A stretch of 64,000 nucleotides of DNA from Escherichia coli (GCF_044324785.1 NZ_CP172127.1), one strand, 5' to 3'; shown: positions 52,801 to 58,800, counted from the stretch's first letter. Numbers: made by a program.

Positions 52801-55800
52801 AGTGCAGCTTATTCTCCACGTGCCAGTGGTTTCGGATTGCTGTGGCGAACTTCTCTGCGGTTAAATCAGCAGAACTGATATAATATCTGACCGTCATTTC
52901 TGGCTCTTTCTTTTGTTCTGCTATTATTGACCGAAAGGAGACTGCCACGCATAATTTCTTCAGACCTTTCCATTCAAACATGAAATCAATAAGTTCATCA
53001 AGGACATCGCAAACAATGTGAAGACGGATTTCTTCTCTGCCGTGACTCTTTTCACTAATTGCGTAACTGTCATGCTCTGGATTATTTAATTCTTTCAGCG
53101 GAAATTTTTCCTCGAAGGCTTTATTTAGCCGCCCCTGGTTTCCTTTTACAGCGAATAAATAATCACCGCCCTGTTTTTGTATCTTTCCTGCAATATCTTT
53201 CTGGCAACACATCACATCAGTTGTGATGATTTTTCCTTTAATATCCAGCATGTTAAGGAGTTCAGGGATAGCTGTAATCTCATTGGATTCCTCATCCGTC
53301 CTGATCTGTCCGATGACCAGACTGTGCATTGTTGAGAACGCACTAATGACATGAATCGCTCCCTTGCGGCGACTCTTGTCATAAGAGTGCCGGAGTGTTT
53401 TTCCATCAATTGCAATGACGCCTTTATCATCTGAAGAATGGCAGTCACGCATCCAGTTAATAAAGCACTCGTGAAATTTTGCAGGACTGATACAGGATAC
53501 AACTCTGGCAATGGTATCGTGAACAGGAATACCATTTTAAAAATCACCATATTGCTTCAAAAAATCGAGATGTGTTTCCCCAAAATCCTCTATATCTTCC
53601 CAACCTTCTGCACCCGAAATAACGGCGCAAATAGTCAACAGTAGAATATCCGATAATTTATGTTCCACTTTCCAGGCTTGTCTGTAATCGGGGATAATAG
53701 AAATATGTTCCATCAATTTTTTAAGTTACATTTTGTTCTCCTTAATTATGTAAGGAGTATTTGATCATGTATAAGCAATAAAAAACAGCTTTAGGTAATG
53801 AGGAATATCTCAATTTTTAAACATAAAATGCGAATTACTTAGTACAAAAAAGCAGCGTTACGTGATCTTTCCCTGGTCCCTGTCCCGGATTGTAGTACCG
53901 GTGCCAGTTGTAGTGCAGTTCGGATTCGTCGTCATACTGCTAGCCCGGATGGCGGAGCAGTTGCTCTAGTCACTCAGAATATTGTAATAGTGATAGAGTG
54001 CAGTGCCGGTTTCAATATCCTAACGCTGGTCTTTTGCCTGTATTAACTGATTTAGCTGGTTTGCTACATATTAATGCCTTCAGATTTTCCCTTTCCTTGT
54101 CTGTGATACTGTCGCAAACCCTACTAGCCCATTCTACTTCACTCTTCTCCAGGCATTCTATTTTCTTATTGCTCATTGTTCTAATGTTTGGTGTTGCATC
54201 TCCATTTAATAACATCCATGTTTCATTTTTCTTCATAAAACATCTTCCATTATGTTCAAAGATATTAGGTGTGAATATATTATCAGAATCCCATGTTACG
54301 ACTTGCTCGAGGGCTATATTATCTTGATAGTCCATGCCAGCATTATAATAATCACAAGATATAATTATCATGGAAATAATTATCACTAATATCTTCCCAA
54401 GCATTTCCATTTACTTTACCTCTTGAAATTCAAATGGGAATCCAGTGAAAGGACCTTTAGGCATAATATATCTTTGATATCCATAAAGCTCACCGAGCAC
54501 TTGTAGGCTTATAGGCGCATTTGTATTCATAGAGGGGTTGTTAAACCCGCACGCCTCAAAAATCATGTTCGTTCGGCTAAAACAATTATTTAAAACAGGA
54601 AGAGGCCCGAGGTTAATAGTTTTTAGTTTTTTATTAAGGTCTATTGCCTTATTCATCATACATTGTTCTTCTTCATCTGTTGTATCTATTATCCAAATCC
54701 AGGTATCTCTGCGGGGTTGCATCTTTTTAAAATAATCAGAGACAGAGGCTCCCATCTCATCCCCAGTTCCCGAACTCATTAATCCATATCGATTTGCCGC
54801 CGCAGCATGCCCAAAAGGATTATCAGGAACGGGGCCGTTACCTATTATCATAGTACTAAGCCCTAATGGATCAACGTGTTGCACTGGATTCAGCGGATAT
54901 TGGTACAGATTCCATCCCCCCTTCAGCCCAATCGGGTCCTGGATGATATACCGCCCCTGCAACGGATCGTAGTACCGGTGACGGTTATAATACAGCCCCG
55001 ACTCCTCATCGTGTTGCTGCCCTGGCAGACGGTACGGCTGGTGCAGGTGATGCGGTTTTTCCTCATTCAGCAGGTTTCCCCACTCATCATACTCCCCGCT
55101 CCACGCCGTATTGCCGTCTTCGCTGATGAGCGCCAGCGGCAGGCCCCGGTGGTCGCAGTGGTAAAGATGAACTTTTCGCGCCGGTGTGTATTCCGGCTCC
55201 ACCTGTCTGGCCAGTTGCTCTACCGTCAGCCCGCACTGCGCAAGCCACGCCCGGCTTTCACTGCTCACGCGGTCTGCCCGGATTTCCCCCTCCAGCCTGT
55301 CCAGCATCCTCACAAGTTCTGCCGGGAACACCACACCGTGTCCGTTCTCGCTCCCTTCCTGCTGGAGCTTCTCCGCCAGGCTCCGCCGCTGCGTTTTCTC
55401 CCGCTCGCCGTTGTCTGTTTCGATGCGGATGAGTGGTGTGAAGCTTCCCGGCTCGTATACCGTCTGGATACGTGTGCTGTCGGTCTGCACCGTCGTCAGG
55501 TGGTCGCCGTCCCAGCCGTACCACGTCACCTCCGGTTTACGCGACAGCGACATCCACCCCGTCAGGTCACGTACCCGCCGCCACACCCGTTTACCCGTCC
55601 GGCGGCCCAGCGGGTCGTAGAGGTAGCGGCTCTCCACCTGCGGCTCGCCATGCTGTATCCGCGTGTAGAACACCAGGCGGTGCTGGCTGTCGTAGTGGTA
55701 GTGGTGGGTCCGCTCGTCGTCCGTCCGTATCACACCCGCCGGGATGCGGTCCGTCTTCTCCGTCAGCCTGCCGTATTCATCGTGGCGGTAGACATAGTGC

Positions 55801-58800
55801 GCATCCTCCGCGATGCGGTTATCCGGCCACACTGTGAGTGTACTGTCCGGGTGCAGCTCCGGGTCCGGCAGCCGGTTGCCCGCCGGGTCCGTGGCATACG
55901 GGATGCGGATGTCCAGGTCCGGTGCGAGGGTGCGCACACTCTCCAGCCTGCCCGTGGCGCTGTAGCCGTATTCCCGCGTCTGTCGCGGGCCGCTGATGCG
56001 CACCAGGTCGCCGTTGTCATTCCACCCGTAGTCACGGTCATACACCAGGCTGTTCAGGTGCTGGCTCTGTAACTGGCCTGCGGGGGTGTATGTGCTGGTC
56101 AGTTCGTATGCGGCATTACTGCCTGCCATGCTGCCGAAGCTGCGCACCGTCTCCCGGTGCAGCCTGTCCCGCGTATACTCGACCCGCGGCGTCCCGCCCA
56201 GCTTCATGCCCGCCAGGTAACCGCTGCCATACGTCAGCCACTCCACCGGCGGCAGGCTGTCCGGCGTGATGCGGTTTGCCAGCCCCTGCTCGTTGTATGC
56301 GTGTTTCGTCTCATGCTGCCACAGCAGTTCCCCCGTCTCCGGGTTCTCCACCGTCTGGCGTTCGCCGGTCAGGCGGCCTTTATCGTCATAGCCGTAGTGG
56401 ACCGCCACACGGTGGCCTTCACTGATATGGCTGAGGGTGGTTAACCACCCGTGCTCATCATACTGCCACTGCTCTGCCGGGTCGCCGTTCACCGTCCGGT
56501 GCGTGATGCGGTCTGCTTCATCGTAGTACCAGAGGATGACAAGCCCCTCATCTTCACTCTGCGTGAGTTTTCCGGTCAGGTCATAATGATAACGTTGCGT
56601 CCGCCCGTCAAAGCCGCGCTGCTGTACCAGGCGGTCCAGCGCATCGTAGCTGAAGTCGCTGTGACTGCCGTTCTCGTTGGTCAGGCTGATGACACGTCCG
56701 GCAGCATCGTACTCCATACTGCGCGTCAGCCCGCCCTGCGTGGTGCTGACCGCCTTTCCCCACGCATCGTACTGTGTCTCGCTCCGGTTGCCGTCCGGGG
56801 TGATAACGGCAGTCAGGTCGCCTGCGGCGTTGTACTCATACTGCGTTTCACGGCCCTGTGCGTCTTTCACCGAGGTTAACCGGCCACGGTTGTCATAGCG
56901 GCGGTAACGGCTGATACCTTCCTCACGGTGGACCGCCGTCATCTGACCAAAGCGGTCGTATTCATAACGGGTCTGGTAGCCCGAGCAGTCGGTGAACGCC
57001 AGCAACTGCCCGTAGCGGCTCCAGGTCATCTGCCGGGTGCTGCCCGTCGCATCCGTTGTCGTCGCCGGTAATTCACTGTGCGGATTATCATAAGCATACC
57101 GGATGACGTCCCCACTGCGCGATGTCTCCGTTACCAGCCTGCCCGGTTCATCATATGCCCGGCGGCTCTCCAGCCCGTCCGGGGACACCACTGCCGTCAC
57201 CTGGTTCCCGTCGTTATAGTAAAATTTCGTCTCCCGCCCGTCCGGTGTGGTGATGTCCGTGATATCGCCTGACACCACATTCAGACCGTACTCTGTCCGC
57301 CGTCCCGCCGCGTCCGTCTGCGCCGTAAGCCTTCCTGCCGCGTCATACCCGCTGCGCGTGACGCTGCCGTCCGCCAGTTCTTTTTTCACCACCCGTTTCA
57401 GCCCGCCTTCACCTTCTGTATGCAGCACCTCACGCCGGTTCAGGCTGTCCGTGACGGTGATGCGGTCCTGCTCATACTGGTAGCGGTAACTCAGGCCTGC
57501 CGGGTTCAGCTGCTCCACCACCCGCCCCGCATCGTCGTAGCGGTAGCGCATCTCCGGCCTTCCCGCGTAACGGTGCGCCACCATCCGGCCCGGGTGCTGC
57601 GCGTCATACGTGAAAGCGCGCACCTGCGTATTGCTGCGGTCATATACCGCCAGCAGTTCACCGGCTTCCGTATACGTGTACCGCGCCAGTGGCGCACCGG
57701 GCAGATTCTCCGGGTATGCCGGGTCGTACATCAGCCACACCGCTGAAAGACGGATACCCCTGTCGGGGCCGTATTCCGTACCGGGCAGTGTGTCGGGGAA
57801 AGCTGAGTCTGAAAGAGGGCGGGGGGTGTCAGGGGAAAATAAGGAAGCGGTGTGCTGTTTACGGGCCTCTTCCGCCCGCTGCGCCTGCGTGGTCAGCACC
57901 AGACGGAACTGCCGCCCGGCACCGTCCGTCACGCCGGTGATTTCCCCGGCCAGGTCACCGGCGGCCTCACGCCGGTACGCCAGCGTCCGCCCGAAGCGGT
58001 CTGCCAGCCCGGTAAGCACCCGGTACGGCGGCAGCGGCGCTGGCAGTACGTCCTCAGCACCCGGCACCCGCTCTGACCACCCCAGTATCCACCACGGCCC
58101 CTGTGCGCTGTTGGTCGCCAGGTAAAGATGCGGGCTTAACCGGATATCCGGCGGCAGCGCCCCCCACAGCCGTGCCAGCGTGTGGCCGTCCGGCTGCGCT
58201 GCCTTACCACCGCGCACCAGCCACATTGACTCGCTGCGGCTGTACACCGCCTCACCCGGCAGCAGCGGCTCAAAGTGAATGCTCCGCCCGCCGTTGTCGT
58301 TGAGTATCAGTCCGTCATCACGTAGCTGTAAGCGGATATCAGAAGGCGCTTTCCAGCCGGGGCCGAAAACGCCCACCGGCGCAGGCGTCTTCGTCCGGTA
58401 GCTGCTGTAGGTGCGGGAGAGAATGAACGGCAGCGGGCCGGGCAGCGCAAGGTCCGTCTCGCCGGGCAGCACCTTCGCCCCCAGCAGCGGATTTACCGGG
58501 TTGCCCGAAGTCATCCCGCCCGGACACACCGAGCACGCCACGCCGGTGGGCGCGCCAATTCTTACACCTGCCGAACCCTGGACAATGGGACCGCCATACT
58601 GAGTCATATCTCCCTGACGCGCCGCTGGTTTTCCGCTCATGATTCAATTCCTTCTTCTGTTTATTTTTAATGCTTGTTTGTTACTGAATACCGAACAGGT
58701 ACGGGATCAGTACTCTCTCATATCCGGCGTATCCTGCTTTTCATCAGGGGTCTTCGGTGGGGATTTCGAGGCTGCACAGTTCCAGTTAATCAACAGTGAG

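Follow-up and report, generated by a model that had tools for sequence, protein, structure and literature searches.

What does a toxin domain do, and in which compartment does it act, when no sequence library recognises it? This question is raised by an rhs gene of Escherichia coli (GCF_044324785.1, NZ_CP172127.1), which lies in a 64,000-nucleotide stretch of DNA analysed at full length and referred to here as the window. The gene encodes a protein of 1409 amino acids ending in a tip of 148 residues, and it is followed by a gene for a putative immunity protein of 132 residues. The original prediction, made from the sequence alone, described the pair as a PAAR-Rhs effector with an unrecognised tip and a lipoprotein-type periplasmic immunity protein, and proposed an envelope-targeting toxin. 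Rather than a novel kind of toxin, the tip is an unmodelled and uncharacterised member of a class of circularly permuted NlpC/P60 toxins, which was defined experimentally in 2024-2026. The overall reading, given a probability of roughly 0.6, is that the gene encodes a type VI secretion system (T6SS) effector, with a permuted NlpC/P60 tip that would act as a phospholipase A-type enzyme in the periplasm and would be countered by a lipoprotein. The features that carry this reading are as follows.

54411..58640, minus strand: rhs gene, 1409 amino acids, with a PAAR-like motif and DUF6531, a YD-repeat cage, a core end and a polymorphic C-terminal tip
54858..55091, minus strand: Rhs-associated core end, residues 1184-1261, ending in ...VDPLGL (TIGR03696, E=1.3e-24)
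54414..54857, minus strand: toxin tip, 148 amino acids, Rhs residues 1262-1409, predicted circularly permuted NlpC/P60-type Cys-His hydrolase domain
54807..54809, minus strand: codon (CAT) of the predicted catalytic His, H17 of the tip and H1278 of the Rhs protein, motif NPFGH, invariant in 36 sequences
54582..54584, minus strand: codon of the predicted catalytic Cys, C92 of the tip and C1353 of the Rhs protein, motif LNNCFSRT, invariant in 36 sequences
54012..54410, minus strand: immunity gene, 132-amino acid lipoprotein precursor, translationally coupled to rhs (open reading frame and junction read)
54354..54410, minus strand: predicted signal peptide with lipobox I-I-S-C, Cys19 codon at 54354-54356, then Asp20 at +2 (pattern match)

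The Rhs shell and the predicted fold of its tip

The shell is recognised along its whole length. Residues 1-1261 match the NCBIfam model NF041261 (“RHS element core protein”) across all 1261 model positions, with a score of 2765 bits, and NCBIfam also finds nine stretches of YD repeats (TIGR01643). Because the core models stop at residue 1261, the tip is defined as residues 1262-1409, and it begins STMIIGNG directly after ...VDPLGL. Self-cleavage after DPxGL is established for Rhs/TcC proteins, and the core end at 54858..55091 is the predicted site of autoproteolytic release of the tip. The base composition switches at the core end, with a guanine-cytosine (GC) content of 0.60-0.69 over the core (about 0.64) and 0.34-0.38 over the tip and immunity gene (about 0.35). 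The reading-frame coordinates, the core-end motif and the AT-rich character of the module had all been noted at the outset, and were confirmed by the open reading frame calls, NCBIfam and the GC scan. The exact protein is deposited at NCBI as WP_395765677.1.

The label “PAAR-Rhs” held in its second part, while the first depends on a single motif and is the one overstated element. DUF6531 is a solid N-terminal domain (Pfam, residues 46-123, E=1e-18), and the Pfam PAAR_motif gives a weak, fragmentary match to residues 3-20 alone (E=0.084). The E. coli literature names this type of Rhs N-terminus a PAAR motif (PMC6730261).

Sequence searches with the tip returned no match in Pfam, even at E<=10, no match in NCBIfam and nothing credible among PDB sequences (phmmer). 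To that extent, the tip was rightly described as lying outside the recognised toxin families. A family-profile search of the PDB gave only summed matches to Protein A repeats, which were judged spurious. A word-indexed search recovered close relatives only, at 54-98% identity, from E. coli, Salmonella and metagenomes. Closer relatives are known in Salmonella enterica (84% identity), Hafnia alvei (70%) and Citrobacter farmeri (about 60%). An exhaustive search of 1.84 billion cluster representatives with a profile of the close homologues yielded 337 proteins at a threshold of E<=1e-3 and 148 at one of E<=1e-10. For many of the matches listed, the domain occupies the C-terminal end of its protein, some of these proteins being 1100-2500 amino acids long, and a DPxGL-type Rhs core end stands just upstream of the domain in every junction sequence read. 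None of ten family members tested gave an NCBIfam match.

Only eight positions (tip numbering) are invariant in an alignment of 36 relatives whose identity to the tip is 26-61%: N13, G16, H17, G25, S28, G30, R50 and C92. The family consensus reads NPFGH-x-A-[IV]-A ... G-[VI]-[YF]-S-x-G ... R ... TTPEQ ... DNC-x-x-R. The invariant His and Cys are the predicted catalytic residues, and Ser1289 is a possible third polar residue alongside them. Pfam gave two matches among the 36 relatives, one to PPPDE/Peptidase_C97 at 0.012 and one to Lnb_N/DUF4105 (PF13387) at 5.5e-4, the latter alone being counted as a family that a relative reaches. The tip itself has no PF13387 match even at E<=10. The Tox-HDC family, known for an H, D, C signature on Rhs proteins (Zhang et al. 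2012), was considered and dropped, as neither the tip nor any of the 36 relatives has a Pfam match to it.

The four best neighbours of the structural model of the tip are YiiX of E. coli (2if6, structural-neighbour score 10.2), the T6SS effector TseH of Vibrio cholerae (6v98, 9.2), the Bacillus cereus “cysteine peptidase” 3kw0 (8.3) and the Rho-inactivation domain (RID) of the MARTX toxin (5xn7, 7.7). All four are circularly permuted papain-like (NlpC/P60) enzymes; PPPDE, canonical NlpC/P60 enzymes and Tae4 score about 4.0-4.6. The His precedes the Cys in the tip, with H17 placed by the model in a strand (17-22) and C92 as the first residue of a helix (92-102). A Foldseek search of AFDB50 with the model recovered Rhs tips from many Proteobacteria, together with proteins annotated as “DUF4105” or “Lnb N-terminal periplasmic domain” (E 6e-9 to 3e-4, template modelling score 0.64-0.81). 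The DUF4105-annotated matches include Rhs fragments of Salmonella salamae. On the predicted structure, the tip very probably adopts a papain-like (permuted NlpC/P60) fold, and modelling makes its assignment to the superfamily of YiiX/YaeF, LRAT, DUF4105/Lnb, TseH and Tox-Act1 well supported. The tip that had been called unknown is still without a sequence-library family, whereas fold comparison puts it in a class with one characterised member.

Tox-Act1 (STox_15) is a T6SS effector of Salmonella pathogenicity island 6 (SPI-6) that is recognised by no hidden Markov model (HMM) and is linked by HHpred to DUF4105 and TseH (Nicastro et al., PLoS Biol 2026, PMC12994826). It has a permuted NlpC/P60 core, is toxic only when periplasmic and needs H43 and C151. 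Cells exposed to it lyse with their rod shape kept, and phosphatidylglycerol (PG) and phosphatidylethanolamine (PE) are converted to the lysolipids lyso-PG and lyso-PE. The toxin is neutralised by Imm-Act1, a protein with two transmembrane segments. The same study lists many Rhs-fused homologues in the Tox-Act1 clade and shows that TseH has phospholipase/lipase activity (PMC12994826).

Tox-Act1 and the tip are both T6SS-linked toxin domains unseen by standard HMM libraries, with the His before the Cys, remote links to DUF4105 and TseH, and a membrane-associated immunity protein. The motifs of Tox-Act1 and TseH were read from the mutagenesis primers of PMC12994826. The His motif is TTG-H-GAAF in Tox-Act1 and NPFG-H-AAAA in the tip (GHGAA in relatives of 70% identity), while the Cys motif is GNN-C-TTH in the former and LNN-C-FSR in the latter, with “N-C” also found in TseH (SHNCMTF). 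A side observation is that the TseH catalytic mutant is named inconsistently in that source, as C156A in one supplementary legend but as C186A both in a second legend and among the primers tabulated (PMC12994826). The His-to-Cys spacing differs, at 108 residues in Tox-Act1 (H43 to C151), 75 in the tip and 61-96 among relatives (177 with both motifs located). In the Tox-Act1 construct the catalytic His is at residue 43, so no Rhs cage lies ahead of it, whereas the domain here is an Rhs tip. No Tox-Act1-like sequence was found among the tip-family matches, and probes derived from the Tox-Act1 primers had no match in E. coli genomes or in species-representative genomes. Cluster look-ups for ten tip-family representatives gave no accession shared with the tables of PMC12994826. 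The only E. coli entry in its homologue lists (S3 Table), QMP79959.1, is a different protein, of 1422 amino acids and with a Pfam DUF4105 match. The tip is a relative of the Tox-Act1 class, and a comparison by motifs and spacing only does not support placing it inside the Tox-Act1 clade.

The likeness of the tip to TseH of the V. cholerae TseH/TsiH pair (6v98) is at the level of fold, with 7% sequence identity; TseH is a stand-alone protein rather than an Rhs tip, and the Pfam family of TseH, DUF6695, matches none of the 36 tip relatives. YiiX/YaeF proteins (Peptidase_C92; 2if6, 3kw0) share the order of elements with the tip, and the His-to-Cys spacing of YiiX (79) is close to that of the tip (75), but YiiX is a housekeeping periplasmic protein and not a toxin. 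Lnb is a biosynthetic membrane enzyme, the lipoprotein N-acyltransferase of Bacteroides, and not a secreted toxin.

The putative immunity lipoprotein and the envelope

The TAA stop codon of rhs (54413-54411) abuts the ATG of the immunity gene at 54410, with GAGG located 8-11 nucleotides upstream of this ATG. The immunity protein begins MEMLGKILVIIISMIIISC, followed by DYYN, and has a basic n-region, a hydrophobic core of 12 residues and a lipobox in agreement with the PROSITE-type lipoprotein pattern. This N-terminal hydrophobic segment is its only one. The pattern is found in seven of seven homologues, down to 58% identity, and S18, C19, D20, the Tyr-Tyr-Asn that follows and exactly four Cys in the mature part are invariant among them. 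Four mature Cys fit two disulfide bonds, hence an oxidising, periplasmic location. According to the Lol-avoidance rule of E. coli, Asp at +2 results in retention in the inner membrane. The Asp at this position suggests that the lipoprotein is probably kept in the inner membrane. No family was found for the protein in Pfam or NCBIfam, with noise-level matches to NanM/YjhT only. UniProt already gives the name “Lipoprotein” to one member of its cluster, and the 90%-identity cluster has 672 members.

Of 5426 complete E. coli genomes, 561 contain the tip probe and 562 the immunity gene. The two are almost one-to-one and present in about 10% of genomes, with 95-100% identity of their DNA over the probes used. 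This co-occurrence, the invariant lipobox, Asp+2 and four Cys, and the UniProt name all uphold the view of the downstream gene as a lipoprotein-type periplasmic immunity gene.

The genes that follow six distant relatives of the tip were also read. All six encode exported or membrane-anchored proteins, as would be expected of a toxin family that works throughout on the periplasmic side of a membrane. Three of these proteins are mutually homologous, with about 106-111 amino acids and an N-terminal hydrophobic segment (a predicted membrane anchor), and a fourth gene encodes this protein too, but with a frameshift. The fifth, on metagenome contig L003, encodes a 75-amino acid protein with two transmembrane segments that is reminiscent of Imm-Act1, and the sixth an ankyrin-repeat protein with a lipobox. 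The anchored family is unrelated to the E. coli immunity protein (hhalign probability 0.1%). A link between this family and BamE was tried and is not significant (E 0.013).

Two side observations concern these relatives. Positions 5001-5877 of L003 encode a lipoprotein-type signal peptide (…LIATSC) fused directly to the final 40 or so residues of an Rhs core (SDPIGL…DPNGL), with the toxin domain after them, and this stand-alone relative suggests Sec-dependent export of a former Rhs tip. Two other metagenome relatives stand directly after a phage-type integrase and a Toprim/primase gene, with an ankyrin-repeat gene following one of them, and cassettes of this kind may ride on integrative elements.

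The fold shared with TseH and YiiX, the periplasm-only toxicity of Tox-Act1 (PMC12994826) and the exported or anchored neighbours of all six relatives are the reasons for placing the target in the envelope. By analogy, they lend support to the envelope-targeting toxin of the original prediction, and an envelope site of action is regarded as likely.

Proposed mechanism and rival explanations

From established Rhs biology, delivery would depend on the T6SS, and the VgrG spike would carry the Rhs protein into a neighbouring Gram-negative cell. Aspartyl self-cleavage after the DPLGL motif would free the tip from the YD-repeat cage enclosing it. Its action in the periplasm of the target would then, by analogy with Tox-Act1 and TseH, be that of a Cys-His hydrolase attacking fatty-acyl ester bonds of PE and PG (phospholipase A-type), and the lysolipids formed would permeabilise the membrane. 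The 132-amino acid immunity protein would be exported, lipidated on Cys19 and disulfide-bonded. Again by analogy, it may bind to the tip on the outer side of the inner membrane, thereby shielding the producing cell and its kin. On the same analogy, a membrane lipid as substrate is given somewhat better than even odds.

A number of points weigh against this scheme. No sequence-profile library (Pfam, NCBIfam, PDB) recognises the tip itself. Homology to YiiX was sought from sequence and rejected, with a probability of 0.7% for hhalign of the family profile and a z of 0.9 against shuffles in global pairwise comparison. The superfamily assignment rests on predicted structure and motif order because the sequence comparisons are not significant. 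The Foldseek search with the tip was weak against the PDB (best E 0.17), with 3kw0 and TseH in the top six and YiiX 14th, while the model of the immunity protein, at a predicted local distance difference test (pLDDT) value of 59, is too poor to interpret and no fold search with it was justified. The immunity proteins also differ, Imm-Act1 of Salmonella having two transmembrane segments and the protein here being an unrelated lipoprotein with no detectable similarity to it. RID, a structural neighbour of the tip, is a protein lysine acyltransferase. The substrate is assigned by analogy only, and the analogues themselves are not uniform, since TseH was first reported as a peptidoglycan hydrolase, and Tox-Act1 and TseH differ between lipase assays (PMC12994826). 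There is also a loose end in the route of delivery: Rhs cages usually carry cargo that acts in the cytoplasm, whereas this tip would have to reach the periplasm.

Other activities of the same fold form rival explanations. The tip could be a peptidoglycan amidase or endopeptidase that cuts peptide stems, as do the NlpC/P60 T6SS effectors of the Tae families, and the lipoprotein would then be a periplasmic inhibitor; this is held to be unlikely. There is a still smaller chance that it is an acyltransferase or a lipoprotein-directed enzyme, acting on the N-termini of lipoproteins, as do Lnb/DUF4105 proteins, or on protein lysines, as does RID, so that lipoprotein sorting or envelope proteins would be poisoned. 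Against this, the only characterised toxin of the class makes lysophospholipids. The immunity proteins of the relatives are, moreover, mostly not lipoproteins at the loci read, so that lipoprotein nature is not a constant of the family. A more specific version, also doubtful, would make the tip a lipoprotein-directed acyl hydrolase or transferase, a cousin of Lnb/DUF4105 that strips or misplaces acyl chains on the lipoproteins of the victim at the inner membrane. The immunity protein, with its invariant Cys-Asp-Tyr-Tyr-Asn start, might in that case be a membrane-anchored decoy or pseudo-substrate.

It is also conceivable, at a low probability, that the Rhs cassette is decaying or not deployed, with the immunity gene kept for protection and the toxin unsecreted or inactive in the strain. 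Rhs loci are rich in orphan fragments, and a core-end scar and a broken ISAs1 element lie just downstream of the immunity gene. In E. coli strain PCN033, a TGG-to-TGA change introduces a premature stop at Trp55 of the tip (L001 9241-9361, equivalent to window position 54693), and this copy is annotated as an Rhs pseudogene plus an 82-amino acid “hypothetical protein”. A 61-nucleotide probe around the Trp55 codon differs in 62 of the 561 genomes. However, the other 499 are identical to the intact window over the probe, and the 1409-amino acid frame in the window is intact and directly follows vgrG and hcp. The catalytic residues are conserved across a large family, and tip and immunity gene remain near one-to-one, without an excess of orphan immunity genes. 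These findings weigh against a decaying cassette, and the preferred reading remains that of a phospholipase A-type tip in the periplasm with a lipoprotein immunity protein.

The locus, its variation and its significance

The window belongs to the E. coli chromosome, and the flanks (gmhA/lpcA, fadE, ivy and yafV) are as in strain PCN033. The neighbouring features are listed below.

58707..60815, minus strand: vgrG, T6SS spike (TIGR03361, E=1.5e-188), 66 nucleotides upstream of rhs
61025..61543, minus strand: hcp/tssD, T6SS tube (TIGR03344, E=1.7e-61)
62240..62740, plus strand: tssB, small subunit of the sheath (TIGR03358, E=1.4e-50), divergent start of the T6SS core cluster
53871..53939, minus strand: vestigial Rhs core-end fragment of 23 codons (QYDDESELHYNWHRYYNPGQG; QYDDESELHYNWHRYYNPGQGPG), just downstream of the immunity gene and preceded by stop codons (translation)
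52595..53716, minus strand: ISAs1-family transposase (H-repeat type), bounding the Rhs element (NF033564 in two open reading frames)

The rhs gene is thus genetically linked to vgrG, hcp and the T6SS core, all three of which lie immediately upstream. Among the open reading frames of the window, there is no chaperone gene between vgrG and rhs, and EagR/DUF1795 is absent there. The intergenic region between hcp and tssB (window 61600-62200) is very AT-rich, with a GC content of 0.27-0.30, and is likely to be a regulatory region of the T6SS cluster. On the other side, the fragment at 53871..53939 resembles a scar left by an rhs 3′ end that was displaced or orphaned, and longer annotated orphan rhs fragments occupy this position in other strains. 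The ISAs1 transposase, intact in PCN033, is probably a pseudogene in the window, where it is disrupted into reading frames of 59 and 285 amino acids that match positions 1-36 and 66-314 of NF033564.

The layout is that of the E. coli Rhs-CT effectors. According to the account of Ma et al. 2017 in PMC6730261, these have a vgrG-rhs-immunity order, a PAAR-like N-terminal motif and exchangeable tips with cognate immunity proteins, as here. Rhs-CT1 to Rhs-CT10 carry metallopeptidase, DNase, RNase and similar tips, and the tip described here is none of the types named there (PMC6730261).

The cassette of tip and immunity gene was found at two locations. One is the main T6SS cluster next to yafV, as seen in the window and in PCN033. 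The other, seen in both further strains examined, is a vgrG-rhs island at the rhsE locus, next to yncH/ydcC, where the cassette follows an orphan vgrG. The two locations imply that it moves as a cassette between Rhs cores. In these other strains, ETEC1747 and 214-4 (L009 and L010, 5093-9712), the cassette is carried on an Rhs protein of 1406 amino acids and is followed by orphan rhs fragments, with a group II intron in one of the two. Strain N3 (NZ_CP031609.1) also carries the module intact, its identity to the window being 100% over the immunity gene and 99.9% over the tip-immunity region. PCN033 has an extra Rhs (L001 559-5283) between vgrG and the tip-bearing Rhs, with a GHEFAH zincin-like motif in its tip and a downstream protein of 149 amino acids with a signal peptide. 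It is absent from the window, so that strains differ in their Rhs array at this locus. This first Rhs of PCN033 had been considered as a candidate for a DUF4105-type tip and was rejected, as it carries the HEFAH zincin-like tip.

The cassette is present in approximately one in ten complete E. coli genomes and at no fewer than two vgrG-linked loci, yet its products are annotated as “RHS element core protein” and “hypothetical protein”. The wider tip family comprises at least 337 clusters at 50% identity and is without a Pfam or NCBIfam model. Placement in the permuted NlpC/P60 class provides a testable activity, two residues (H1278 and C1353) and a predicted compartment. It would extend the lipid-targeting NlpC/P60 toxins to a common Rhs effector of E. 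coli, and would add to the class an unrelated solution to immunity, an inner-membrane-type lipoprotein instead of a protein with two transmembrane segments. The concepts of T6SS or Rhs toxin action are unchanged by these findings, which would hold no surprise for the specialist; they are useful for annotation and provide a ready experimental system in E. coli.

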